DNA of 64,000 nt from Escherichia coli (GCF_009931435.1 NZ_CP043414.1); one strand, 5' to 3'. Shown: positions 1,001 to 24,062, counted from the first letter of the stretch. A program made the numbers and translations. Notes: generated by a model not told the origin, from the letters alone.

Positions 1001-1864
1001 TTATTCAATGTTCTGAATCTGCTCGCGCATCTGCTCAATCAACACTTTCAGCTCAATCGCGGAGTTAGTCACTTCGGCATTGATAGACTTCGAGGCCAGG
1101 GTGTTCGACTCGCGGTTGAACTCCTGCATCATAAAGTCCAGACGACGACCAACGGCTTCTTTTTTCTTCAGAATGTTGTAGGTCTCTTTAACATGCGCTT
1201 CGAGGCGGTCCAACTCTTCGGCAACGTCAATTCGTTGTGCCAGCAGAACCAACTCCTGCTCCAGACGGTTGTTTTCCAGTTGCACCTGGGCGTCTTCCAG
1301 CTTAGCCACCAGACGTTCACGCTGCCATTGCAGGATTTCCGGCATGTGGGCGCGGACTTTGACCACTTCGGCGGTCACGCCTTCCAGACGCTGCTCGATC
1401 AATGCTTTCAGCGCCTGACCTTCGGTTTCGCGCGCGACGATAAAGTCATCCAGCGTACCATCCAGCGCCACGAGAATTTCAGCGGCAATCGCGTCGAGAT
1501 CCTGTTCCTGGGCCGCCATCACGCCTGGCCAGCGGAGAATATCAACCGGGTTGATTTCCCCTTCGTCACTCTGCATTTTTACCCAGTTCGCGGCAGTTAC
1601 CAGCTGTTTAGCCAGTTTTTCGTTGAGGATCAGCTCACCTTGTGCGCTGACATCTGGCTCATAGCGCAGGGTACATTCCACTTTACCACGCGTCAGGCGA
1701 GAACGAATACGCTCGCGAACGACAGGTTCAAGGCTACGGAACTGCTCCGGCAGACGAAAGTAAGTTTCCAGATAACGCTGGTTTACCGAGCGCATTTCCC
1801 AGGTTGCGCTCCCCCATTCACCCTTGATTTCACGCCGGGCGTAGGCGGTCATACTGCGGATCAT
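1001..1864 (-). CDS. yicC: YicC family stress-induced protein
   Basis: ORF track 287 aa, MIRSMTAYARREIKGEWGSATWEMRSVNQRYLE...; conserved position beside rph. Confidence 0.9.
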   Translation of the reverse strand: MIRSMTAYARREIKGEWGSATWEMRSVNQRYLETYFRLPEQFRSLEPVVRERIRSRLTRGKVECTLRYEPDVSAQGELILNEKLAKQLVTAANWVKMQSDEGEINPVDILRWPGVMAAQEQDLDAIAAEILVALDGTLDDFIVARETEGQALKALIEQRLEGVTAEVVKVRAHMPEILQWQRERLVAKLEDAQVQLENNRLEQELVLLAQRIDVAEELDRLEAHVKETYNILKKKEAVGRRLDFMMQEFNRESNTLASKSINAEVTNSAIELKVLIEQMREQIQNIE

Positions 1865-1990
1865 AGACGTTCCTGTTTATAAAAGGAGAGGTGGAAGGAT
1901 TATAGCCATCGATGCCTTGTCAGGATAGGAATAACCGCCGGAAGTCCGTATAATGCGCAGCCACATTTGTTTCAAGCCGGAGATTTCAAT

Positions 1991-2707
1991 ATGCGTCCAG
2001 CAGGCCGTAGCAATAATCAGGTGCGTCCCGTTACCCTGACTCGTAACTATACAAAACATGCAGAAGGCTCGGTGCTGGTCGAATTTGGCGATACCAAAGT
2101 ATTATGTACCGCCTCTATTGAAGAAGGCGTGCCCCGCTTCCTGAAAGGTCAGGGCCAGGGCTGGATCACCGCAGAATACGGTATGCTGCCGCGTTCTACT
2201 CATACCCGTAATGCCCGTGAAGCGGCGAAAGGTAAGCAGGGGGGACGCACAATGGAAATCCAGCGTCTGATCGCCCGTGCTCTTCGCGCGGCAGTAGATT
2301 TGAAAGCGCTGGGTGAGTTCACCATTACGCTGGACTGCGACGTGCTTCAGGCTGATGGTGGCACGCGTACCGCTTCGATTACCGGTGCTTGTGTTGCACT
2401 GGCCGATGCCCTGAATAAACTGGTTGAAAATGGCAAGCTGAAAACCAACCCGATGAAAGGGATGGTAGCCGCGGTTTCTGTCGGGATTGTGAACGGCGAA
2501 GCGGTTTGCGATCTGGAATACGTTGAAGACTCTGCCGCTGAAACGGACATGAACGTGGTGATGACCGAAGACGGGCGCATCATTGAAGTTCAGGGAACGG
2601 CAGAAGGCGAGCCGTTTACCCATGAAGAGCTACTCACCTTGTTGGCGCTGGCCCGAGGGGGAATCGAATCCATTGTAGCGACGCAGAAGGCGGCGCTGGC
2701 AAACTGA
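1991..2707 (+). CDS. rph: ribonuclease PH (intact, 238 aa)
   Basis: ORF track 1967..2707; canonical start [38 protein letters not shown] at the ATG 24 nt inside the track ORF. Reading frame is intact to the stop. Confidence 0.93.
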
Positions 2708-2712
2708 TTTTT

Positions 2713-2741
2713 AAGGCGACTGATGAGTCGCCTTTTTTTTG
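2713..2741 (+). terminator. pyrE attenuator: intrinsic terminator hairpin in rph-pyrE spacer
   Basis: AAGGCGAC-TGATGA-GTCGCCTT stem-loop followed by a T8 run, between the rph stop and pyrE start; matches the known UTP-sensitive pyrE attenuation mechanism. Confidence 0.8.
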
Positions 2742-2772
2742 TCTGTAGAAAAGTAAGATGAGGAGCGAAGGC

Positions 2773-3414
2773 ATGAAACCATATCAGCGCCAGTTTATTG
2801 AATTTGCGCTTGGCAAGCAGGTGTTAAAGTTTGGCGAGTTTACGCTGAAGTCCGGGCGCAAAAGCCCCTATTTCTTCAACGCCGGGCTGTTTAATACCGG
2901 GCGCGATCTGGCACTGTTAGGCCGTTTTTACGCTGAAGCATTGGTGGATTCCGGCATTGAGTTCGATCTGCTGTTTGGCCCTGCTTACAAAGGGATCCCA
3001 ATTGCCACTACTACCGCAGTGGCGCTGGCGGAGCATCATGACCTGGACCTGCCGTACTGCTTTAACCGCAAAGAAGCAAAAGACCACGGTGAAGGCGGCA
3101 ATCTGGTCGGTAGCGCGTTACAAGGACGCGTAATGCTGGTGGATGATGTGATCACCGCCGGAACGGCGATTCGCGAGTCGATGGAAATTATTCAGGCCAA
3201 TGGCGCGACGCTTGCTGGCGTATTGATTTCGCTCGATCGTCAGGAGCGTGGTCGCGGCGAGATTTCGGCAATTCAGGAAGTTGAACGTGATTACAACTGC
3301 AAAGTGATCTCTATCATCACCCTGAAAGACCTGATTGCTTACCTCGAAGAGAAGCCAGAAATGGCGGAACATCTGGCGGCGGTTAAGGCCTACCGCGAAG
3401 AGTTTGGCGTTTAA
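2773..3414 (+). CDS. pyrE: orotate phosphoribosyltransferase
   Basis: ORF track 2758..3414; canonical start [36 protein letters not shown] at ATG 2773. Confidence 0.95.
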
Positions 3415-3421
3415 AAATATG

Positions 3422-3450
3422 CGCTGCGCAGGTTTTTACTGTGCGCAGCG
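3422..3450 (+). terminator. stem-loop downstream of pyrE (possible terminator or retron boundary hairpin)
   Basis: CGCTGCGCA / TGCGCAGCG 9-bp inverted repeat with an 11-nt T-rich loop; no clear downstream T-run, so the terminator role is uncertain. Confidence 0.35.
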
Positions 3451-3484
3451 TGATGCGGTTTAAGATATCGTGTTAATCTGCTTT

Positions 3485-3678
3485 CGCCAGCAGTGGCAAT
3501 AGCGTTTCCGGCCTTTTATGCCGGGAGGGTCGGCGAGTCGCCGACTTAACGCCAGTAGGTTGTCCAGATACCCAAAGTCGCTCCATTGTACTTAAGTACG
3601 CTTCGCGTACGTCGCGCTGACGCGCTCAGTACAGTTACGCGCCTTCGGGATGGTTTGATGGTATTGCTGCTGTTGGCG
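3485..3678 (+). ncRNA. msr-msd: retron msr-msd non-coding region (template/primer RNA for msDNA)
   Basis: About 190-nt non-coding stretch directly upstream of the RT gene, flanked by inverted repeats a1 (about 3485-3503, CGCCAGCAGTGGCAATAGC) and a2 (about 3660-3678, GTATTGCTGCTGTTGGCG) that pair over 17 bp allowing G-U wobbles; internal palindromes (GTACTTAAGTAC, GTCGGCGAGTCGCCGAC) fit the msd stem. Boundaries are approximate. Confidence 0.6.
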
Positions 3679-3710
3679 CCTCTTTTGGCCGCCGTGATGT
3701 GGAGAGTGGA

Positions 3711-4670
3711 ATGGATGCTACCCGGATAACCCTTCTGGCGCTCGATTTGTTCGGCTCGCCGGGCTGGAGCGCCGATAAAGAAATACAGCGGCTGTATGCG
3801 CTCAGTAATCATGCCGGACGCCATTACCGACGCATTATTCTTTCTAAACGCCACGGTGGTCAGCGGCTGGTGTTAGCCCCTGATTACTTGCTCAAAACCG
3901 TACAGCGCAACATTCTTAAGAACGTCCTTTCACAATTTCCACTTTCCTCTTTTGCTACCGCCTACCGACAGGGTCGCCCAATCGTCAGCAACGCGCAGCC
4001 TCACTGCCAACAGCCGCAGATCCTTAAACTCGATATCGAAAACTTTTTCGATAGCATTAGCTGGCTACAGGTCTGGCGTGTGTTTAGCCAGACCCAGTTG
4101 CCACGCAATGTGGTAACCATGCTGACCTGGCTTTGTTGCTATAACGACGCGTTACCGCAGGGGGCGCCAACTTCGCCTGCCATTTCCAATCTTGTGATGC
4201 GCCGTTTTGATGAGTGCATAGGGGAATGGTGTCAGGCTCGGGGAATTACCTACACCCGCTACTGCGATGACATGACCTTTTCTGGTCACTTCAATGCCCG
4301 CCAGGTTAAAAATAAAGTATGCGGATTGTTAGCGGAGCTGGGCCTGAGCCTCAATCAACGCAAAAGCTGCCTGATAGCTGCCTGTAAGCGCCAGCAGGTA
4401 ACCGGGATTGTTGTTAATCACAAGCCACAGCTTGCCCGTGAAGCGCGCCGGGCGCTGCGTCAGGAAGTACATTTGTGCCAAAAATATGGCGTTATTTCGC
4501 ATCTTAGTCATCGTGGTGAACTTGATCCTTCTGGCGATCTCCACGCACAGGCAACGGCGTATCTTTATGCTTTGCAGGGAAGAATAAACTGGTTATTGCA
4601 AATCAATCCTGAGGATGAGGCCTTTAAACAGGCGAGGGTGAGTGTAAAGCGAATGCTGGTGGCATGGTAA
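3711..4670 (+). CDS. ret: retron-type reverse transcriptase (319 aa)
   Basis: ORF track 3699..4670 (start taken at first ATG, 3711). RT motifs visible: LKLDIENFFDSI, QGAPTSPAISNL, YTRYCDDMTF (YxDD box), GLSLNQRKS, and retron-typical VTG motif (RQQVTGIVVNHKP). Sits between pyrE and slmA, which are adjacent in K-12. Confidence 0.9.
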   Translation: MDATRITLLALDLFGSPGWSADKEIQRLYALSNHAGRHYRRIILSKRHGGQRLVLAPDYLLKTVQRNILKNVLSQFPLSSFATAYRQGRPIVSNAQPHCQQPQILKLDIENFFDSISWLQVWRVFSQTQLPRNVVTMLTWLCCYNDALPQGAPTSPAISNLVMRRFDECIGEWCQARGITYTRYCDDMTFSGHFNARQVKNKVCGLLAELGLSLNQRKSCLIAACKRQQVTGIVVNHKPQLAREARRALRQEVHLCQKYGVISHLSHRGELDPSGDLHAQATAYLYALQGRINWLLQINPEDEAFKQARVSVKRMLVAW

Positions 4671-4678
4671 GAAAAGCG

Positions 4679-4700
4679 TCAGGCAGACGTTTCTGCCTGA
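4679..4700. terminator. hairpin between convergent RT gene and slmA (candidate bidirectional terminator)
   Basis: TCAGGCAGA-CGTT-TCTGCCTGA perfect 9-bp stem; on the minus strand it is followed by a T-rich tract. Confidence 0.5.
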
Positions 4701-4713
4701 ACGTTTGGGAGAA

Positions 4714-5310
4714 TTACTGCAACTGCGCAGCAATTAGCGGCCAGCGGGCGTCAAAGTCATCCGTCGGGCGGTATTTAAACTCGCTGCGGACAAAGCGTGA
4801 CAGCATACCTTCACAGAAGGCCAGGATCTGGCTTGCCAGCAGGGTTTCGTCGGTGGTGTAACCTTCACCCTCACGCATTCTCTTTTCACGCAATACCTGA
4901 CGCAACTGCGCTTCAATACGCTCGAATAGCTGGTTGATGCGCCCTTGCAGGCGATCCTGTTCAAACATTAGTGCATGACCAGTGAGGATGCGGGTCAGGC
5001 CAGGATTACGCTCACCAAAACCGAGAAGCAGCAACACAATCAGACGCAGGCGCGCTGTGGTGTCTTTCTCATCTTTCAGAATCAGATTGATGCGAGTAAT
5101 CAGGCTATCTTCGATAAACTCAATCAGGCTATCGAACATGCGGGTCTTACTGGGGAAGTGGCGATACAGTGCCGCTTCGGAAACGCCGACAGAGGCGGCC
5201 AGTTTTGCCGTCGTGATACGTTGGCTTCCATCGCTGGATTCCAGCATCAGCGCCAGAGACTGAAGTATTTCCTCGCGACGGTTCCTTTTCGCAGTTTGTT
5301 TTTCTGCCAT
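4714..5310 (-). CDS. slmA: nucleoid occlusion factor SlmA (TetR family)
   Basis: ORF track 4714..5352; canonical start [52 protein letters not shown] 14 codons inside the track ORF. Confidence 0.95.
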
Positions 5311-5416
5311 GTTACAAAATACCCCTGAAAATAAGCACTTGCCAGGCGGCACCCACGCTATGACCGCAAACGAAATGTTTGCGGCTATGTTATGACGTTA
5401 TTCGGATGCGTATGTG

Positions 5417-5875
5417 TTACTGACGACCAGAGTGACCAAAGCCGCCTTCACCGCGGTCGGTGGCGTCGAAATCTTCCACCAGATTAAATTCAGCCTGTAC
5501 TACCGGAACAAAAATCATCTGGGCGATGCGTTCGCCAGGTTGAATGGTGAAGCTGTCCTGACCACGGTTCCACACGGAAATCATCAACTGGCCCTGATAG
5601 TCAGAATCGATCAATCCTACCAGGTTACCAAGCACGATACCGTGCTTATGTCCCAATCCGGAGCGCGGCAGCATCATTGCCGCCAGTGAAGGATCGGCAA
5701 TATGAATCGCCAGCCCGGTCGGAACCAGCGTAGTGTCACCCGGAGCCAGTTCTACGGCGTCGTCGAGACAGGCACGCAGGTCAAGTCCGGCAGAGCCAGA
5801 GGTGGCATAAGTCGGGAGCGGAAATTCCTTCCCAACGCGCGGGTCCAGAATCTTAACGTCGATTTTTTTCATCAT
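5417..5875 (-). CDS. dut: dUTP diphosphatase
   Basis: ORF track 152 aa [37 protein letters not shown]...; the true start may be the second Met (5872). Confidence 0.95.
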
Positions 5876-7073
5876 AACGGGTCACGATCTCGTCGAGTAA
5901 TAATTGGCCAAGGAGCTCTTTGCGCTCAAGCGGTAAGACTTTATCTCCGTCCTGCCAGAAAAGGTGTAATGCGTTGTTGTCGCTGTTAAATCCTTGAGTT
6001 GGCTGGGAAACATCGTTCGCGCAGATCAGATCAAGGTTTTTACGGATACGTTTTTGCCGGGCGTATTCTTCCACATTATTTGTTTCGGCGGCAAATCCAA
6101 CGACGTAGGGTCGATGGTCTTTTAGTGCGGCAACACCAGCGACGATATCGGGGTTTTTAACCATTTTTATTGTTAATTCATCACCCTGCGTGGCCTGCTT
6201 TTTGATTTTCTCTGGGGCTACGGTAGCTGCGCGATAATCCGCCACGGCGGCGCAACCGATAAAAATATTTTGCTGCTGTACAGAAGCATTCACGGCCGCT
6301 TCCATTTCCAGCGCAGTCATCACATCAACACGTTTAACAAACGGTGGCGTCGGTAGTGAAACCGGACCTGATACCAGCGTGACGTTCGCGCCACGACGGG
6401 CAGCGGCGGCGGCGATAGCAAAACCCATCTTGCCTGAGCTGTGATTAGAGATATAACGCACCGGATCGAGCGGTTCACGCGTCGGGCCGGCGGTAATCAT
6501 AATGTTCAGATGTTTCAGGTCGTTGACGGGCGAAAAATGTGCTACCGCCATATCAACAATGGTTAACGGATCGAGCATTCGCCCAGGGCCGATATCACCA
6601 CAAGCCTGACTGCCGCTATCTGGCCCCCAGATGAGCAAACCACGCGAGGCAAGCAGCTCTAAATTATGCTGCGTGGCAGCTGCACGGTACATCTGCTGGT
6701 TCATGGCGGGCAGCACGGCTACAGGCGCAGGTGTAGCCAGGCAAATCGTCGATACCAGGTCATTCGCCATTCCGGCAGCAACACGGGCAATCAAATCTGC
6801 CGTGGCAGGGGCGAGAATCACTAAATCAGCCCATTTACCCAGCTCAATATGGCCCATAGCGGCTTCGGCTGCCGGGTCAAGCAGACTGTCGGAAACGGGA
6901 TACCCCGAAACTGCCTGCAAGCTAAGTGGGGTAATAAAGGCTTTTGCCGCTTCGGTCATGGCTACGCGGACGTCGGCCCCGCGATCGCGCAAACGACGCG
7001 CCAGTTCAGGGGTTTTATAGGCAGCAATACCGCCGCTGACGCCGAGAACGATTTTTTTACCGGCCAGGCTCAT
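5853..7073 (-). CDS. coaBC: bifunctional phosphopantothenoylcysteine decarboxylase / phosphopantothenate-cysteine ligase
   Basis: ORF track 5853..7145; canonical 406-aa start [37 protein letters not shown] 24 codons inside the track ORF. Confidence 0.95.
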
Positions 7074-7244
7074 GATGATTTTTCCTGTTGGGTGACACCA
7101 GAAGTTGGCGATTTTATCACAATACTTTTGTTGTCGTGCCTTCACCTGAAAATCACTTTGCGAGGCGCTTTCCAGGATTGAAAACTGACCGTCGATTTAA
7201 CGGAACGGCTATGACAGGATGCGAGCACCACAAAGGAGGTGAAG

Positions 7245-13856: not shown

Positions 13857-14646
13857 ACTTAAAGAGCCGTTTGCCACGTTATGGCGCGGTAAAGATCCTT
13901 TTGAGGAAGTTAAAACCTTGCAGGGTGAGGTTTTTCGTGAACTGGAAACTCGCCGCACTCTGCGCTTTGAAATGGCGGGCAAAAGCTATTTTCTCAAATG
14001 GCATCGCGGCACGACCCTGAAAGAGATAATCAAAAATTTACTCTCATTGCGGATGCCAGTATTAGGCGCAGACCGCGAATGGAATGCGATTCATCGACTG
14101 CGGGATGTCGGCGTTGATACTATGTATGGGGTGGCATTCGGCGAAAAAGGCATTAATCCACTGACCAGAACCTCGTTTATTATAACCGAAGATCTGACAC
14201 CAACCATCAGTCTGGAAGATTACTGTGCTGACTGGGCGACTAACCCTCCAGATGTTCGCGTAAAGCGTATGCTTATTAAGCGTGTCGCGATGATGGTGCG
14301 CGATATGCATGCTGCGGGCATTAACCACCGTGACTGTTATATCTGTCATTTCCTGCTGCACTTGCCTTTTTCCGGTAAGGAAGAGGAGTTAAAAATTTCA
14401 GTAATTGACCTGCACCGGGCGCAGCTTCGCACGCGCGTTCCACGTCGTTGGCGCGATAAAGATCTTATTGGGCTTTATTTTTCTTCGATGAATATTGGCC
14501 TGACTCAGCGGGATATCTGGCGGTTCATGAAGGTGTATTTTGCTGCCCCGCTTAAAGACATTCTCAAGCAGGAACAAGGGCTGCTGTCGCAAGCAGAAGC
14601 AAAAGCCACAAAAATCAGGGAAAGAACGATTCGAAAATCGTTGTAA
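13849..14646 (+). CDS. waaP: LPS core heptose I kinase
   Basis: ORF track 13840..14646; canonical start [54 protein letters not shown] at ATG 13849, overlapping the waaG stop. Confidence 0.9.
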
Positions 14647-14661
14647 TTTCCGGAGAGAAAT

Positions 14662-15678
14662 ATGAGTGCCCACTATTTTAATCCACAAGAGATGATCAAT
14701 AAGACAATCATCTTCGATGAAAGGCCAGAGGCGTCAGTGGCATCATCATTCCATGTTGCTTATGGCATTGATAAAAACTTTCTTTTTGGTTGTGGTGTTT
14801 CAATCACGTCAGTTTTGTTACATAACAACGACGTGAGTTTTGTCTTCCACGTTTTTATTGATGATATCCCTGACGCCGATATCCAGCGTTTATCCCAATT
14901 GGCGAAAAGCTATCATACCTGTATCCAGATCCATCTGGTAAATTGTGAACGGCTTAAGGTATTACCGACGACCAAAAATTGGTCTATTGCCATGTATTTC
15001 CGTTTTGTAATTGCAGATTACTTTATTGATCAACAAGATAAGATCCTGTACCTGGATGCTGATATCGCCTGTCAGGGAACCTTAAAACCGCTGATAACAA
15101 TGGATCTTGCCAATAACGTTGCTGCTGTTGTTACTGAACGCGATGCTAACTGGTGGTCGTTACGGGCTCAAAGTCTGCAGTGTAATGAACTTGAAAAGGG
15201 TTACTTTAATTCAGGTGTCCTGTTAATTAATACACTAGCGTGGGCGCAGGAGTCCGTTTCTGCTAAAGCGATGTCGATGCTTGCTGATAAAGCCGTCGTT
15301 TCCCGTTTAACCTATATGGATCAAGATATACTAAATCTTATCCTGTTAGGGAAAGTTAAATTCATTGATGCTAAATACAATACGCAATTTAGTTTAAATT
15401 ATGAATTAAAAAAATCATTTATTTGTCCAATTAATGATGAAACCGTATTAATTCATTATGTCGGCCCGACAAAACCCTGGCATTACTGGGCCGGTTATCC
15501 AAGCGCGCAGCCATTTATCAAAGCCAAAGAAGCATCGCCATGGAAAAATGAACCGTTAATGCGGCCAATTAACTCAAATTATGCTCGTTATTGCGCTAAG
15601 CATAATTTTAAACAAAATAAACCAATTAACGGGATAATGAATTATATTTATTATTTTTATTTAAAGATAATAAAATGA
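14662..15678 (+). CDS. waaO: glycosyltransferase family 8, LPS outer-core alpha-1,3-glucosyltransferase (R1-type WaaO)
   Basis: ORF track 338 aa; GT8 signature (FHVAYGIDKNF..., LYLDADIACQG, HYVGPTKPWHYWAGYP); first of three GT8 paralogues after waaP, the R1 core-type order. Confidence 0.75.
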   Translation: MSAHYFNPQEMINKTIIFDERPEASVASSFHVAYGIDKNFLFGCGVSITSVLLHNNDVSFVFHVFIDDIPDADIQRLSQLAKSYHTCIQIHLVNCERLKVLPTTKNWSIAMYFRFVIADYFIDQQDKILYLDADIACQGTLKPLITMDLANNVAAVVTERDANWWSLRAQSLQCNELEKGYFNSGVLLINTLAWAQESVSAKAMSMLADKAVVSRLTYMDQDILNLILLGKVKFIDAKYNTQFSLNYELKKSFICPINDETVLIHYVGPTKPWHYWAGYPSAQPFIKAKEASPWKNEPLMRPINSNYARYCAKHNFKQNKPINGIMNYIYYFYLKIIK

Positions 15679-15694
15679 CATTGAGAAAAGTTAA

Positions 15695-16690
15695 ATGAAT
15701 GAATTTATAAAAGAACGGTTTTCGTATTTAGCAGATAATAAAAAAGAAAACGTCCCAGAGCTAAATGTTTCCTACGGTATCGATAAGAATTTTTTGTATG
15801 GTGCTGGCGTTTCAATTTCTTCCGTTTTGATTAATAATTCAGATATTAATTTTGTCTTTCATGTTTTCACTGATTATGTGGATGATGATTATTTAAAGTC
15901 ATTTAATGAAACAGCAAAACAATTTAATACCTCAATTATTGTATATTTAATTGACCCAAAATACTTTGCTGATCTACCGACGTCACAGTTTTGGTCGTAC
16001 GCGACATACTTCAGGGTATTGTCCTTTGAATATCTGAGTGAAAGTATTTCCACACTGCTGTATCTGGATGCCGATGTCGTTTGTAAAGGAAGTCTGAAAC
16101 CTCTCACAAAAATTATATTTAAAGATGAGTTTGCTGCGGTTATTCCTGACAATGATAGTACTCAGGCGGCATGTGCAAAACGTCTTAACATTCCCGAAAT
16201 GAATGGACGTTATTTCAATGCAGGCGTTATCTATGTCAATCTTAAAAAATGGCATGAAGCAAATTTGACACCGTATTTACTCAAACTTTTACGAGGGGAA
16301 ACTAAATATGGCTCTCTTAAATATTTAGATCAGGATGCGTTGAATATCGCATTTAATATGAATAATATCTACCTTGCGAAGGATTTTGATACTATTTATA
16401 CCCTGAAAAACGAACTTTATGATCGTAGTCATCGAAAGTATCAGCAAACCATTACCGATAAAACAGTGTTGATTCACTATACAGGGATAACTAAACCATG
16501 GCATAGCTGGGCTGGATATCCGTCTGCATCATACTTTAATATCGCGCGTGAACAATCTCCCTGGAAGAAATATCCTCTTAAAGAGGCGCGGACTGTTGCA
16601 GAAATGCAGAAACAATATAAGCATCTGTTTGCCCATGGTGAGTATATAAAAGGCATAACTTCATTAATTAAGTACAAGCTTAAGAAATAA
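15695..16690 (+). CDS. waaT: glycosyltransferase family 8, LPS outer-core alpha-1,2-glycosyltransferase (R1-type WaaT)
   Basis: ORF track 331 aa; GT8 motifs (VSYGIDKNF, LYLDADVVCKG, HYTGITKPWHSWAGYP). Assignment to WaaT by position in the R1-type order. Confidence 0.7.
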   Translation: MNEFIKERFSYLADNKKENVPELNVSYGIDKNFLYGAGVSISSVLINNSDINFVFHVFTDYVDDDYLKSFNETAKQFNTSIIVYLIDPKYFADLPTSQFWSYATYFRVLSFEYLSESISTLLYLDADVVCKGSLKPLTKIIFKDEFAAVIPDNDSTQAACAKRLNIPEMNGRYFNAGVIYVNLKKWHEANLTPYLLKLLRGETKYGSLKYLDQDALNIAFNMNNIYLAKDFDTIYTLKNELYDRSHRKYQQTITDKTVLIHYTGITKPWHSWAGYPSASYFNIAREQSPWKKYPLKEARTVAEMQKQYKHLFAHGEYIKGITSLIKYKLKK

Positions 16691-16699
16691 ATTACTCTT

Positions 16700-17392
16700 A
16701 TGATTACAAGTATACGTTATCGCGGCTTCTCATTTTATTACAAAGATAATGATAATAAATATAAAGAAATCTTTGATGAAATACTGGCCTATAATTTTAA
16801 AACAGTAAAAGTATTACGTAATATTGATGATACCAAAGTATCGTTGATTGATACGAAATATGGTCGCTATGTTTTTAAAGTCTTTGCTCCGAAAACGAAA
16901 AGGAATGAACGTTTTTTAAAATCTTTTGTAAAAGGTGACTACTATCAGAATTTGATCGTTGAAACCGATCGTGTCAGAAGTGCAGGTCTTACTTTTCCTA
17001 ATGATTTTTATTTTCTGGCTGAGCGTAAAATTTTCAACTATGCCAGTGTTTTTATCATGCTTATCGAGTATGTCGAGGGCGTAGAGCTCAATGATATGCC
17101 GATTATTCCAGAAAATGTTAAAGCAGAAATTAAGGTTTCAATGGAAAAATTGCATGCCTTAAATATGCTATCGGGCGACCCACACCGGGGTAACTTTATC
17201 GTTAGTAAAGATGGTGTCAGGATAATTGACCTATCCGGTAAAAGCTGTACGGCAGAGCGTAAAGCTCGTGATCGTCTGGCCATGGAACGTCACCTGGGTA
17301 TTGCCAACGAAATAAAAGATTATGGCTACTATTCAGTAATCTACAGAACCAAACTACGCAAATTTATTAAAAAATTAAAAGGCAAAGCGTAA
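16700..17392 (+). CDS. waaY: LPS core heptose II kinase
   Basis: ORF track 230 aa MITSIRYRGFSFYYKDNDNKYKEIFDEILAYNFKTVKVLRNIDDTKVSLIDTKYGRYVFKVF...; kinase-like HRGNFIV / IIDLSGK motifs. Confidence 0.85.
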   Translation: MITSIRYRGFSFYYKDNDNKYKEIFDEILAYNFKTVKVLRNIDDTKVSLIDTKYGRYVFKVFAPKTKRNERFLKSFVKGDYYQNLIVETDRVRSAGLTFPNDFYFLAERKIFNYASVFIMLIEYVEGVELNDMPIIPENVKAEIKVSMEKLHALNMLSGDPHRGNFIVSKDGVRIIDLSGKSCTAERKARDRLAMERHLGIANEIKDYGYYSVIYRTKLRKFIKKLKGKA

Positions 17393-17417
17393 ACCACACA
17401 GTCAAAACGGAACCAAC

Positions 17418-18446
17418 ATGGATTTATTAGCTGAGAGTATTACTGAAGTCGCTGTCTCTGGGGAAATTGCTAACACCGATCGTGTGTTAAATATCGCTTA
17501 CGGTATTGACCGTAATTTTTTATTTGGTGCGGCAGTATCTATGCAATCAGTTGTTATGCATAACCCGGACCTTGCGGTTAAGTTTCATCTCTTTACCGAC
17601 TACATTGATGAAGATTATCTACAACGTGTTAACGCTTTTACCAGCAAAAATGCTAACGTTGAAGTAAGAATTTATAAAGTCTCCAGTGCCTTTATTGATA
17701 TCTTCCCCAGCCTGAAACAGTGGTCTTATGCAACATTCTTCCGTTTAGTTGCGTTCCAGTATCTGAGTGAAACTATTGAAAATCTGTTATATATCGATGC
17801 TGATGTCATCTGTAAAGGCTCATTAGCTGGATTGCTTGATATTAATTTTGACGGCGATAAGTTTGCAGCTGTTATTAAAGATGTGCCTTTTATGCAGGAA
17901 AAACCAGCGAAGCGTCTGGCTATAGAGGGACTTCCAGGGAATTATTTCAACGCTGGTGTAGTATATCTGCAGCTTGAAGCATGGTCGAAAAATGATTTTA
18001 TGAACAAAGCCATTGCTATGCTGGCAAGTGACCCGCAGCACACGAAATATAAATGCCTTGATCAGGATATTTTAAATATTCTGTTCTTTGGTCATTGTAT
18101 TTTTATTAGCGGCGATTATGATTGCTTTTATGGCATTGACTATGAGTTAAAAAATAAAAGCAATGAAGATTATAAAAAGACCATTACCGATGATACTAAG
18201 CTGATTCATTATGTTGGCGTAACGAAGCCCTGGAACGACTGGACAAATTATCCCTGCCAGAAGTATTTTAATGAGGCTTATCAGGCTTCTTGCTGGAATG
18301 ATGTGGCGTTTATTCCAGCCACGAATGAAAAGCAGTATCAAGTGAAATACCAACATGCAAAGAAAAATGGTGATACGTTTAACGCTTTCATTTACTTCAT
18401 TAAATTCAAATTAAATAAGTATAAAAGAAAACTATTTGGGCAATAA
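17418..18446 (+). CDS. waaW: glycosyltransferase family 8, LPS outer-core alpha-1,2-galactosyltransferase (R1-type WaaW)
   Basis: ORF track 342 aa; GT8 motifs (IAYGIDRNF, LYIDADVICKG, HYVGVTKPWNDWTNYP). Assignment by position after waaY. Confidence 0.7.
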   Translation: MDLLAESITEVAVSGEIANTDRVLNIAYGIDRNFLFGAAVSMQSVVMHNPDLAVKFHLFTDYIDEDYLQRVNAFTSKNANVEVRIYKVSSAFIDIFPSLKQWSYATFFRLVAFQYLSETIENLLYIDADVICKGSLAGLLDINFDGDKFAAVIKDVPFMQEKPAKRLAIEGLPGNYFNAGVVYLQLEAWSKNDFMNKAIAMLASDPQHTKYKCLDQDILNILFFGHCIFISGDYDCFYGIDYELKNKSNEDYKKTITDDTKLIHYVGVTKPWNDWTNYPCQKYFNEAYQASCWNDVAFIPATNEKQYQVKYQHAKKNGDTFNAFIYFIKFKLNKYKRKLFGQ

Positions 18447-18524
18447 AAATCATGGATGTCTGAGTTACAATAATAATTAAGGATGAGTACTATCATATTT
18501 TATTAGTTCAGGCAAGAGAACACG

Positions 18525-19508
18525 ATGAGCAATGATTACCCTTTAGTATCCATAATAATACCGACGTATAATTCATCTGATTACATTACTGAAACTCTAA
18601 CGAAATTAGAAAAACAAACTTACCCAAATTTTGAAATTGTTATTGTTAATGATGGTTCTAAAGATAACACATCAAACGTTTTGAGAGAGTATGGGTTAAC
18701 CCACTCGCAATTAATTATTATCAATAAAGAAAATGGCGGTGTTTCGTCTGCCAGGAATACAGGTATCCGCAAGGCGCAAGGACAGTTTATATGTTTTATG
18801 GATGATGATGATGAGATAGATCCTAACTATCTGCTGAAGATGTATTCCAGACAACATGAGACGGGAGGGGATGCGATTTATTGTGGGCTTTATGGCCATC
18901 ATATAAAAAATGGTGTTACTTACTCACCTATAAATACAGAGTTTAATGAAGGGTCTTTACTTTTCGACTTTTTTTATAAAAAGGTCAGATTCCATATAGG
19001 GTGCTTGTTTATAAGAAAACAACTCCTGGAAGATAATAATCTTTTTTTTGATGAAGATTTACGACTAGGAGAAGATCTGGATTTTATCTATCGACTGCTA
19101 ATTACATGCGATATGTATGCGGTTCCATATTATATGTATAAGCATAACTATAGAGAAAATTCCTTAATGAACTCATGTAGAACCATCACTCATTATCGAC
19201 ATGAGTCATTTGCGCACGAAAGAATCTACTCTTCTGTGATGCAGTTATACAAAGGTAACCGGAAAGAAGAAATTCATACATTATTGAGTAAAAATAGAAC
19301 TTATCATAAAACTCGTTATTTATGGAATGTTCTACTTAATGGCGATTTTGAATTATTAAATCAATTAGTTGAAAGCAATGAAAAAGAATTGAAAGATTGT
19401 AATCTTCTTGGCAAGAGAGATAAGAGGCGAGCAAAAATATTAGCATCAAAAAACTATATTCTCTGGAGGATGGTAAGACTGGTAAATAGAAAAAAGAATA
19501 AACGTTAG
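18525..19508 (+). CDS. waaV: glycosyltransferase family 2, LPS outer-core beta-glucosyltransferase (R1-type WaaV)
   Basis: ORF track 327 aa MSNDYPLVSIIIPTYNSSDYITETLTKLEKQTYPNFEIVIVNDGSKDNT... (GT2 fold motif, DDDDE). Assignment by position before waaL. Confidence 0.7.
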   Translation: MSNDYPLVSIIIPTYNSSDYITETLTKLEKQTYPNFEIVIVNDGSKDNTSNVLREYGLTHSQLIIINKENGGVSSARNTGIRKAQGQFICFMDDDDEIDPNYLLKMYSRQHETGGDAIYCGLYGHHIKNGVTYSPINTEFNEGSLLFDFFYKKVRFHIGCLFIRKQLLEDNNLFFDEDLRLGEDLDFIYRLLITCDMYAVPYYMYKHNYRENSLMNSCRTITHYRHESFAHERIYSSVMQLYKGNRKEEIHTLLSKNRTYHKTRYLWNVLLNGDFELLNQLVESNEKELKDCNLLGKRDKRRAKILASKNYILWRMVRLVNRKKNKR

Positions 19509-19553
19509 GTCTTCCATTAAATAACCCATCCTCGTAGCATAGGTTGAAATTAT

Positions 19554-20807
19554 ATGTCGTTTTGTTGGAATGAAATTAACTCTGGTGTCAAGTCTTTAAC
19601 TCTCATATTATGTATGTTGTCTTTAATGACTTTGTCTTTGTGGGATGATGTTGCAACAAAGTTTCTTCATGCAGCTGGAATTATATCTGCATTATATTTT
19701 CTAGCGACACCAAAAAAAACAATAACTAATAATCCTACGTTGTTAATTTTCATCTCATTATGTCTTTTGGGTATCGTTAATATCATCTGGTATTCACATT
19801 ATAAAGTTTCAGGCTCGGTTTATACCAATGCATATCGTGGCCCAATGGAAACTGGAAAAATTGCCTTGTGTAGTGCTTTTATTTTCTTAGTTCTTTTTGC
19901 TAAAGATGAGATGAGAACCAAAATAAAATTTGGGAAACTAATTCTGTTCGCATCCCTGGCAACGCAGTTACTTTTTTTTGCGCATGCCATGTGGCAACAT
20001 TTCTATTTAAACGTCGACCGTGTTGCATTATCAGCTTCCCACGCTACAACAGCAGGCTACATCATCCTTTTCCCTTCTTTACTGGCATCAATTCTCATTT
20101 TAAAATCCGACTTTAGACATAAAACAACATTATATACAATTAACTTCATGCTTAGCTTATGTGCTGTTATAGTAACTGAAACGCGTGCAGCCATATTAGT
20201 GTTTCCATTCTTTGCGTTACTATTAATCGTAATGGATAGTTATATTAATAAGCGAATTAATTATAAGTTATATTGTTTTATTGCGATTGCATTATTAGCA
20301 GGTGTATTTTCTTTTAAAGATACATTACTTACGAGAATGAATGACTTAAATAGGGATTTAGTTAATTATTCGCATGATAACACCAGAACTTCAGTCGGTG
20401 CCCGTCTGGCAATGTATGAAGTTGGTTTAAAAACATATTCTCCAATAGGACAATCACTGGAAAAACGCGCGGAAAAAATACATGAACTAGAAGAGAAAGA
20501 GCCTAGATTAAGTGGCGCTTTACCCTTTGTAGATTCTCATTTGCATAACGATCTCATAGATACGTTATCAACGCGTGGTATTCCTGGAGTAGTATTAACA
20601 ATTTTAGCCTTTTCAGCAATATTCATATATGCCTTAAGAACTGCTAAAGAACCTTATATTTTAATCTTGCTTTTTTCACTACTGGTAGTAGGCCTAAGTG
20701 ATGTAATACTCTTTTCTAAACCGGTTCCGACTGCTGTGTTTGTCACCATAATATTGCTTTGTGCTTATTTTAAAGCACAATCGGACCAATGTTTATTAGA
20801 TAAGTAA
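19554..20807 (+). CDS. waaL: O-antigen ligase
   Basis: ORF track 417 aa, polytopic membrane protein with a late periplasmic loop; last gene of the operon before convergent waaC. AT-rich like the rest of the central waa genes. Confidence 0.85.
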   Translation: MSFCWNEINSGVKSLTLILCMLSLMTLSLWDDVATKFLHAAGIISALYFLATPKKTITNNPTLLIFISLCLLGIVNIIWYSHYKVSGSVYTNAYRGPMETGKIALCSAFIFLVLFAKDEMRTKIKFGKLILFASLATQLLFFAHAMWQHFYLNVDRVALSASHATTAGYIILFPSLLASILILKSDFRHKTTLYTINFMLSLCAVIVTETRAAILVFPFFALLLIVMDSYINKRINYKLYCFIAIALLAGVFSFKDTLLTRMNDLNRDLVNYSHDNTRTSVGARLAMYEVGLKTYSPIGQSLEKRAEKIHELEEKEPRLSGALPFVDSHLHNDLIDTLSTRGIPGVVLTILAFSAIFIYALRTAKEPYILILLFSLLVVGLSDVILFSKPVPTAVFVTIILLCAYFKAQSDQCLLDK

Positions 20808-20821
20808 TGAATATGTGAAAT

Positions 20822-20845
20822 AAAATCAGCAAGGAAGCTGATTTT
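20822..20845. terminator. bidirectional intrinsic terminator between convergent waaL and waaC
   Basis: AAAATCAGC-AAGGAA-GCTGATTTT: 9-bp stem flanked by A-run on one side and T-run on the other. Confidence 0.6.
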
Positions 20846-20876
20846 ATTTCAAAATTATCTATTAAAGAGTTGTAAT

Positions 20877-21857
20877 TTAAATCATGGCAGCTTTTTCAGC
20901 GTTTTCTTCAATGAATTGCTTAACAGCATTTGCTGTCAATTGAGACAACTCATTCCCCGGTGCCCTACATACCATCTGATTCTTCCCATACCCGCCAATT
21001 AATCCCGGATCGGTTGGCCCATAAACCGTGATATTCGGTCGATCCAGTGCTGCAGTTAAATGGCTTAATCCTGTATCGACTGACACAACAAATTTAGCCC
21101 CCGCCAGCACACAAGCAACGCCTTCCAGACTCATCTTCGGCAATACTTCAACATAAGCAAATCCTTCCGCCAGTCTTTTTGCCCGCTCTTCTTCATGCGG
21201 CGCGCCCCACGGAAGTTTAATGCGAATCCCTGAATCTGCCAGTAAACCAATCAACTCTCGCCAGTGTGCTTCCGGCCAGTGTTTATCATCACGGGTTGTT
21301 GCATGAAGAAATACGGCATATTCGCCAGCATCTGTTGGCAGGTTCGTCAGGAAATGCTGCGCAATAGCATAATCGCCCTGAGTCTGCGGTTTGCTATAGC
21401 CCAGACTTTTGGCAAACAGTTCGCGGGTGCGTTCTACGGCGTGCTGCTGTTTTGCAATATGATGTTTACGATTGTAAAACAGGCTGGCTAAAGGTTCGCG
21501 TGCGGTTTGCCAGTCCATTCCATGCTTTACGCCATGCGCCAGACGCGTAACTAGTGCCGCGCTTTTTACCAGCCCCTGAGCGTCGATAACTGCGTCATAG
21601 TTCTCTGCTTGTAGCGCTTCACGAAACGCTTTGCGTTCAGCTTTTATGGGGGCCGAGAACCAGGCTTTACGCCAGCGACGTATTGCCACAGGAATAACTC
21701 GCTCAACGGCGGCGTGCCAGGAAGGAATTTGTGCGAACCCTTCTTCCACCACCCAGTCAAACTTAATCCCCGGGATTGCCTGCTGGGCATCAGTGAGTGC
21801 GGGCAACGTATGGAGAACATCGCCCATCGACGATGTTTTAACGATCAAAACCCGCAT
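20877..21857 (-). CDS. waaC: LPS heptosyltransferase I
   Basis: ORF track 326 aa MRVLIVKTSSMGDVLHTLPALTDAQQAIPGIKFDWVVEEGFAQIP... Confidence 0.92.
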   Translation of the reverse strand: MRVLIVKTSSMGDVLHTLPALTDAQQAIPGIKFDWVVEEGFAQIPSWHAAVERVIPVAIRRWRKAWFSAPIKAERKAFREALQAENYDAVIDAQGLVKSAALVTRLAHGVKHGMDWQTAREPLASLFYNRKHHIAKQQHAVERTRELFAKSLGYSKPQTQGDYAIAQHFLTNLPTDAGEYAVFLHATTRDDKHWPEAHWRELIGLLADSGIRIKLPWGAPHEEERAKRLAEGFAYVEVLPKMSLEGVACVLAGAKFVVSVDTGLSHLTAALDRPNITVYGPTDPGLIGGYGKNQMVCRAPGNELSQLTANAVKQFIEENAEKAAMI

Positions 21858-23849: not shown

Positions 23850-24062
23850 AACTGTAACCTTCGAATTATGGAGTCAGAGACAATCTCAGACACGAATGCT
23901 TCTATCATATCACTACACGGCGTTGGCTTCAGCCATTCGCCAAAAGTGAGATTGATGGACGTTATTTATCCTGAATTTTGCAGAAGTGTTAACGCGTCAT
24001 CTCGTCGCAACCTATAAGTTTGGGTAATATGTGCTGGAATTTGCCCTGTCTGGAGAATCGCA

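Follow-up and report, generated by a model that had tools for sequence, protein, structure and literature searches.

The insert between pyrE and slmA in this stretch of Escherichia coli DNA (NZ_CP043414.1) is very probably an intact variant allele of retron-Ec107 (Retron-Eco5), a stand-alone element that consists of an msr-msd RNA gene and a reverse transcriptase (RT) only. The window, to which all coordinates refer, is the whole stretch of 64,000 nucleotides that was analyzed. Retron-Ec107 itself is already known and was described in 1992, and branched msDNA production has been reported for the archetype (PMC6868368). The window allele is a minor variant of it, and the exact RT protein is already public on 197 contigs (P0122, named 'MULTISPECIES ... 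[Escherichia]'), so the identification in itself adds little. Ec107 is nevertheless among the few experimentally validated retrons without an effector or a known function. Conservation of its non-coding RNA (ncRNA) reaches from E. coli to Lachnospiraceae and extends to the inner msd helices, its RT is under purifying selection, and no gene was found linked to it.

Gene order in the first 9.5 kb of the window (yicC, rph, pyrE, the insert, slmA, dut, coaBC, radC, rpmB, rpmG and mutM) is that of E. coli, and the flanks of the retron locus are 98-99.6% identical to those of E. coli genomes. The pyrE stop codon is found at 3412-3414 and that of slmA, on the minus strand, at 4714-4716, giving a spacer of 1299 bp (3415-4713) as opposed to 36 bp in K-12 MG1655; an earlier note on this sequence had already described a short K-12 spacer expanded to about 1.3 kb. 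In K-12 the spacer holds the palindrome GCCGGATGA-aaag-TCATCCGGC. Since a single A is common to both states at each border, the comparison with K-12 indicates that an insert of 1297 bp (3416-4712, plus strand), comprising the whole retron cassette, replaces the 34-bp palindromic spacer. Retron-Eco5 is described as substituting for 34 bp of palindromic intergenic sequence (PMC6868368), and the match with Ec107 follows in part from the equality of this published figure with the replacement at pyrE-slmA. A YCDD box and the neighboring orotate phosphoribosyltransferase gene are also features of the published element (PMC6868368; PMC7736814), and reviews record no sign of a mobile element at its site (PMC6868368).

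The cassette brings hairpins at both of its ends, neither of them assigned to a strand. A GC-rich hairpin directly after the pyrE stop (CGCTGCGCA / TGCGCAGCG, 3422-3450), formed by a 9-nt inverted repeat that is 100% complementary, probably terminates or stabilizes the pyrE transcript, and comparable hairpins are also located 3' of pyrE in two orthologous loci (L004 and L007). At the other end, folding and a terminator scan of the minus strand identified a hairpin of nine pairs (TCAGGCAGA-cgtt-TCTGCCTGA, 4679-4700). This hairpin is followed on the minus strand by the T-run CGCTTTTCTT and so provides slmA with a terminator-like site in place of the lost K-12 palindrome. Besides the RT gene, no other ORF of note was found between pyrE and slmA.

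The RT gene extends from an ATG at 3711 to 4670 on the plus strand, preceded by a Shine-Dalgarno GGAG at 3701-3704, and encodes the 319-aa protein with YCDD and VTG motifs that the earlier note had reported. An alternative GTG start at 3699 would yield 323 aa; homologues align from the ATG at 3711. The motifs NAQPH (NAXXH, residues 94-98), YCDD (184-187) and VTG (230-232) are invariant across 19 clade members. In PADLOC the protein matches RT_Ec107-like best (E = 2e-132, residues 5-314), with the RT_III-A models ranking next (2e-93), and Pfam returns RVT_1 (6.8e-21). The nearest solved structures in the PDB are all retron RTs, namely Ec86 (1.7e-38) and then Ec83, Ec78, Ec67, Kva2 and Eco8, while matches to a group II intron RT (6.6e-8) and to Drt2 (1e-6) are weaker. 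It is extremely improbable that the protein is an RT of another class (group II intron, DGR or DRT/UG) and the upstream repeats incidental. Such a reading could draw on weak NCBIfam similarity to the group II RT/maturase, Drt2 and Drt3a models, far under their cut-offs, but the retron models score far higher, with none reaching its curated cut-off, and so do the retron structures. Moreover, the protein has both NAXXH and VTG, the sequence lacks an intron RNA domain and a DGR template/variable repeat pair, Rfam detects no group II intron, and a covarying retron-type ncRNA accompanies the gene. The model scores, the motifs and the covarying ncRNA refute a non-retron class, and the assignment to retron rather than group II or DGR enzymes made in the earlier note is upheld.

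The window RT differs from the common E. coli allele (P0121), which is equated with the Ec107 archetype by its UniRef label Q05804_ECOLX, at 13 of 319 residues (95.9% identity). None of the substitutions affects NAXXH, YCDD or VTG, and the two proteins share a 90% cluster. Together with the site, the 34-bp replacement and the YCDD box, this small distance supports the identity with retron-Ec107 that the earlier note had proposed. The reading frame is intact in the window and in the distant orthologues examined. Purifying selection on the RT is indicated by dN/dS ratios of 0.14-0.18 among E. coli copies and of 0.12 for a pair of Pseudocitrobacter species.

A structured ncRNA gene (msr-msd, 3485-3678), closed by a 17-bp inverted repeat, precedes the RT gene on the same strand. 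The 5' arm (3485-3501) and the 3' arm (3662-3678) were located by the inverted repeat and the fold and are supported by covariation. The two 17-nt arms are 82% Watson-Crick complementary, and 17 of 17 positions pair when G-U is allowed. Classically, a2 denotes the repeat adjoining the branching G and a1 the repeat adjoining the msd, which makes the 5' arm a2 and the 3' arm a1. The repeats that the earlier note had placed at about 3485-3503 and 3660-3678 are thus present, but its labels a1 and a2 are swapped relative to the classical naming. RNA from 3480-3685 folds with -92 kcal/mol (z = -4.66), a stability reached by 0 of 200 shuffles, and structure prediction, suggested at the outset as a check, yields the closing duplex, the msd hairpin and an unpaired G after the 5' arm. 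This residue, G3502 on the plus strand, sits unpaired at the end of the closing stem in the minimum-energy fold and is the candidate branching (priming) G; the ATAGC pentamer around it is invariant in 10 of 10 aligned ncRNAs. The branch G of Ec107 is presumably residue 18 of a 75-nt RNA, which would fit a transcript start at 3485.

Within this gene, the consensus structure places the msr at 3485-3559 (plus strand), with an approximate 3' limit deduced from a short overlap with the predicted end of the msd. It contains two hairpins (3506-3512/3520-3526 and 3527-3535/3539-3547), the consensus helices 2 and 3, which show 5 and 4 compensatory pairs, respectively. The predicted msd (3555-3661, minus strand) was delimited by counting 107 nt from 3661, the first template base 5' of the 3' repeat arm, and between these putative ends there are zero indels relative to the common E. 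coli allele. The 107-nt msDNA would be its reverse complement, which folds as DNA into a Y-shaped hairpin (-21.1 kcal/mol, z = -2.6) with helices at 3571-3581/3639-3649, 3588-3591/3629-3632, 3596-3601/3605-3610 and 3614-3617/3622-3625 on the minus strand, as indicated by the fold and by covariation of helices 4-7. Six nucleotides before the 5' repeat is a candidate extended -10 promoter element, TG-T-TAATCT (3471-3479, plus strand). Of the 10 regions upstream of an ncRNA, the 8 from pyrE-slmA and Leminorella loci conserve a block GTG(T/C)TA(T/A)(G/T)(C/A)T here, and the Pragia and Budvicia sequences fail to align across it; a two-hexamer promoter scan did not report the element. A permissive Rfam search (E up to 1) of 3300-4800 found no match, and the assignment of the RNA therefore rests on our own alignment and model.

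Covariation backs the fold of the retron ncRNA in five enterobacterial genera and, at a greater distance, in about 60 further loci. We aligned ten ncRNAs, from the window, E. coli strain 38, a metagenomic lineage, three Pseudocitrobacter, two Leminorella, Pragia and Budvicia. The RNAalifold consensus contains the closing stem, the two msr hairpins and the branched msd hairpin, with compensatory changes in 26 of 59 pairs. When a covariation test was limited to the 55 pairs that belong to the retron RNA itself, 97% of cells were paired as opposed to 31-42% in controls whose partners were slid by 1-3 columns, and both-sided changes affected 22 pairs as opposed to 1-6. On four of five measures the observed value was reached in 0 of 500 shuffles; for the remaining measure, which counts further pair types, 198 of 500 shuffles reached it. 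Further support comes from a covariance model built from nine enterobacterial sequences, which finds one strong match in the 64-kb window (3484-3679, 210 bits). Among 77 further loci from Lachnospiraceae, Bacilli and Neisseria, the model detects a full-length RNA directly upstream of the RT and on the same strand in about 60, with E values down to 2e-25. In the resulting 67-sequence alignment, which was fitted to the model and is therefore biased towards that structure, 91.8% of cells are paired (29-50% in slid controls) and double changes occur in 52 of 54 pairs. Compensatory changes in the closing stem rise from 7 of 16 pairs with ten sequences to 16 of 16 with 67. The inner msd helices GTAC/GTAC and GCACGC/GCGTGC are almost invariant across phyla.

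No effector gene genetically linked to the RT, as expected of a tripartite retron, was found at the locus or in 87 related loci. When all ORFs within 3.5 kb of the 87 related RTs were clustered all-against-all, no conserved neighbor emerged and no family was common to more than nine loci. The largest family, at nine loci, comprises regulators of the AraC type or response regulators, in either orientation. In the Firmicutes relatives, the genes shortly downstream are a miscellany of regulators, MurE-like ligases, an oxidoreductase and a GGDEF protein. This lack of a conserved neighbor agrees with the stand-alone (orphan) status that Mestre et al. 2020 give to the Ec107 branch. We considered PyrE as the missing PRTase-type effector and rejected it. 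PyrE, SlmA and YicC have no match in PADLOC, and the relatives in Leminorella, Pragia, Budvicia and Neisseria have no adjoining PRTase; Mestre et al. 2020 likewise regard the pyrE adjacency of Ec107 as probably incidental. ORFs that overlap the RT in other frames or antisense (e.g. 3546-3854, minus strand) have no PADLOC match either and were read as by-products of RT conservation. The same authors place the Ec107 branch at a node shared with the PRTase-linked (type III) retrons, raise both trans effectors and domestication as possibilities, and find homologues of known retron effectors absent from most hosts of orphan retrons. The phage assays of Millman et al. excluded Ec107, and we found no later functional or phage-protection study of it in the literature searched.

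Comparison with characterized systems places the element closest to Retron-Ec107/Eco5 (Herzer, Inouye & Inouye 1992; reviewed in PMC6868368 and PMC7736814), with which it shares the replacement of the 34-bp pyrE-slmA/ttk palindrome, the layout of msr-msd followed by a 319-aa RT, YCDD instead of YADD and the lack of an accessory ORF. Apart from the 13 RT substitutions, the ncRNA regions of the two differ at about 5% of nucleotides, and most of these differences concern unpaired or wobble-compatible positions. The type III-A1 retrons (RT clade 2) form the sister RT branch (Mestre et al. 2020); they carry genes for a PRTase-like effector and a winged-helix protein, both of which are absent here, and the adjacent PyrE is the housekeeping orotate phosphoribosyltransferase. 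Retron-Eco1 (Ec86) has the closest solved RT, of similar size (320 aa), and its ncRNA follows the same logic of closing repeat, branching G, msr hairpins and msd hairpin. In contrast to the window element, Eco1 has YADD, is prophage-borne and encodes an NDT-type effector for a tripartite, toxin-antitoxin-like defence. The stand-alone (msr-msd)-RT cassettes of RT clade 11 in Actinobacteria are likewise effector-less, are restricted in taxonomy and have been proposed to be domesticated (Mestre et al. 2020), but they differ from the window element in RT clade, ncRNA type and host phylum.

Ec107 behaves as a chromosomal, non-mobile, presence/absence allele at one site. The retron is carried by 381 of 5426 complete E. 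coli genomes (7%), always in single copy, on the chromosome and between pyrE and slmA. A query spanning the empty K-12 junction is covered in full in 5043 genomes and split in two places in exactly 381, which indicates a two-state site with no other occupant among the 5424 matching genomes. Such a clean site (retron in 7%, 36-bp spacer in 93%) offers natural isogenic comparisons and makes a knock-in into K-12 straightforward. The window allele is 95-96% identical to most E. coli copies, and its allele group is seldom met in complete genomes. Over 7 kb the window is matched with 100% identity by a draft genome (GCA_036950425.1). The closest copy in a complete genome (H1, 98.6%) contains an internal stop and is listed as an RT pseudogene in the annotation, which indicates that the retron can decay. 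We rejected the idea that the retron is more diverged than its flanks, given that identity to strain 38 is 96.0% in the left flank, 95-96.6% in the retron and 98.1% in the right flank. Outside E. coli, RTs of about 70% identity occupy the same pyrE-slmA site in Pseudocitrobacter and in one metagenomic lineage. Between these genera the flanking genes have pS values of 0.47-0.63, whereas the RT is saturated (0.74-0.79). GC and GC3 of the RT are host-like. These values fit long residence and would also allow repeated capture.

Steps 1 to 4 of the mechanism we propose apply established retron biochemistry to the anatomy of the locus, and step 5 is our inference. In step 1, a single transcript carrying msr, msd and RT would start at about 3485, driven by the promoter-like element (3471-3479), with a possible contribution of read-through from pyrE. 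In step 2, pairing of 3485-3501 with 3662-3678 would offer the 2'-OH of the unpaired G3502 to the RT, which would recognize the two msr hairpins. The RT would then copy the template leftwards from about 3661 to about 3555 (step 3) as host RNase H1 degrades the copied RNA; RNase H1 is reported to affect the length of Eco5 msDNA. The predicted product (step 4) is a single-stranded DNA of about 107 nt with the conserved Y-shaped hairpin, branched to the msr RNA and bound by the RT. The locus encodes no effector in cis, which suggests (step 5) that the RT-msDNA complex itself is the selected product. This complex might act in defence with a partner encoded elsewhere, or have another role, e.g. in starvation or stationary phase.

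A defence role does not follow from being a retron, and for this element it is an unproven hypothesis. The earlier note had called the locus a mobile-origin defence candidate in a housekeeping neighborhood; the housekeeping context stands, and the mobile-origin and defence part is the weak point, there being no effector and the retron belonging to an orphan class. An anti-phage system, in which the RT-msDNA complex guards or senses phage activity through an effector elsewhere or blocks phage without a toxin, is possible while falling well short of probable. It would fit the PADLOC classification, which files RT_Ec107-like under retrons with RT_III-A as the next-best models, and the ties of the sister branch to PRTase-like effectors. 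Its patchy distribution (7% of E. coli genomes) is of the kind usually seen for accessory and defence genes, and phage defence has been shown for most characterized retrons (Millman et al.). Against this, there is neither a cis effector nor a conserved neighbor in the 87 related loci, and the context is housekeeping, with no defence island or prophage. Homologues of known effectors are missing from most hosts of orphan retrons (Mestre et al.), Ec107 was left out of the phage tests (Millman et al.), GC is host-like and the same site is occupied across genera. Domestication of the retron for a physiological role unrelated to abortive infection, such as a starvation or stationary-phase function of the msDNA-RT complex, is a reading that we consider conceivable without thinking it likely. 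Expression of the Ec107 archetype is reported to increase under phosphate starvation and at entry into stationary phase (PMC6868368), as such a role would have it, and Mestre et al. proposed domestication for vertically inherited clades. Same-site orthologues in Pseudocitrobacter and a third lineage with host-like GC3, the purifying selection on the RT and the near-invariance of the inner msd helices across phyla point in the same direction. Yet 93% of E. coli genomes lack the element, which is therefore dispensable, at least one allele is a pseudogene, and there is no known phenotype.

The element might also be a functionless relic that hitch-hikes between two essential or housekeeping genes. 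In favor of a relic, there is neither a known phenotype nor an effector, one allele is pseudogenized, and a harmless deletion between pyrE and slmA is unlikely unless a terminator is restored. We nevertheless regard a relic as improbable. The dN/dS of 0.12-0.18 argues for constraint, the RT is intact in the window and in the distant orthologues examined, and the ncRNA has been kept by compensatory changes across genera and phyla while synonymous sites of the RT became saturated.

As a rather doubtful proposal, to be taken as a whole, the Ec107-like retrons may be a multi-phylum family in which the RT-msDNA complex alone is selected, with no effector in cis. In Enterobacterales they would have settled in the terminator spacers of convergent housekeeping pairs (pyrE/slmA, cyaY/cyaA and cdaR-like/garD-like), bringing their own hairpins, and then have been inherited as presence/absence alleles. 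If this is true, the Ec107-like mode differs from toxin-based abortive infection and could involve, for example, a starvation-linked role or a partner in trans. The more distant relatives in Leminorella are found solo between the convergent genes cyaY and cyaA, and those in Pragia and Budvicia lie solo between convergent cdaR-like and garD-like genes. We rejected a general preference for convergent gene pairs; it is a weak lead that the three enterobacterial sites bear out and the Firmicutes relatives do not. Among the latter, the flanking genes are oriented +/+ at 34 loci, +/- at 19, -/+ at 15 and -/- at 10.

The inner helices of the msd, the predicted msDNA template, consist of GTAC/GTAC and GCACGC/GCGTGC (window 3588-3632) and show almost no variation between E. 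coli and Lachnospiraceae in alignment A5, which compares the retron ncRNAs of the window and its relatives. Because these helices are nearly invariant whereas synonymous sites in the RT are saturated, the sequence comparison suggests that recognition of the three-way junction of the msDNA is sequence-specific. The msr-msd gene is also bracketed by a 10-nt direct repeat (window 3449-3458 and 3693-3702; CGTGATGCGG and CGTGATGTGG), which may well have arisen by chance.

We found that the pyrE-slmA site is also occupied in Pseudocitrobacter spp. and in one metagenomic lineage, by retrons whose RTs are ~70% identical to the window RT (loci L004, L005, L006, L007, L013 and L014; for example, the L004 RT at 5001-5963 of that locus). 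In several of these six loci the RT stop overlaps the slmA stop. The location shared across lineages may reflect either ancient vertical inheritance or repeated capture at one site. More distant relatives in Leminorella, Pragia and Budvicia are solo retrons and are likewise flanked by convergent housekeeping genes, with the order cyaY, RT and a facing cyaA in Leminorella (L008, L009 and L010), and a cdaR-like gene, RT and a facing garD-like gene in Pragia (L011 and L021) and Budvicia (L015). Thus, three independent convergent-pair sites (pyrE/slmA, cyaY/cyaA and cdaR-like/garD-like) hold these retrons in the Enterobacterales; the pattern was not observed among the Firmicutes relatives.

Among complete genomes, the closest allele to the window retron is that of E. 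coli 2020CK-00188 (L002, 3297-4256 of that locus), which is 98.6% identical and whose RT is annotated as a pseudogene with an internal stop. Compared with E. coli strain 38, the yicC-rph-pyrE left flank (window 1001-3414) is ~4% diverged and the slmA-dut-coaBC right flank (4714-7145) ~2%; divergence between K-12 and the first 3415 bases of the window is ~3.7%. These values suggest that a recombination boundary lies at the window retron or close to it.

Elsewhere in the window, the LPS core (waa) region (14543-20961) has no alignment with K-12, an indication that the core types differ, and htrL is apparently missing relative to K-12 (~23898-23959). A 5.9-kb segment between the yibL and lldP homologues (39600-45511) has no K-12 counterpart. 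One of its ORFs (39658-44211, minus strand; 1517 aa) is trimeric autotransporter adhesin-like and matches Ata/YadA-type domains of NCBIfam; another, of 180 aa, matches no family. Finally, a 1397-aa RHS element core protein (58178-62371, minus strand; NCBIfam RHS_core, 2618 bits) is encoded where K-12 has its rhsA neighbourhood.
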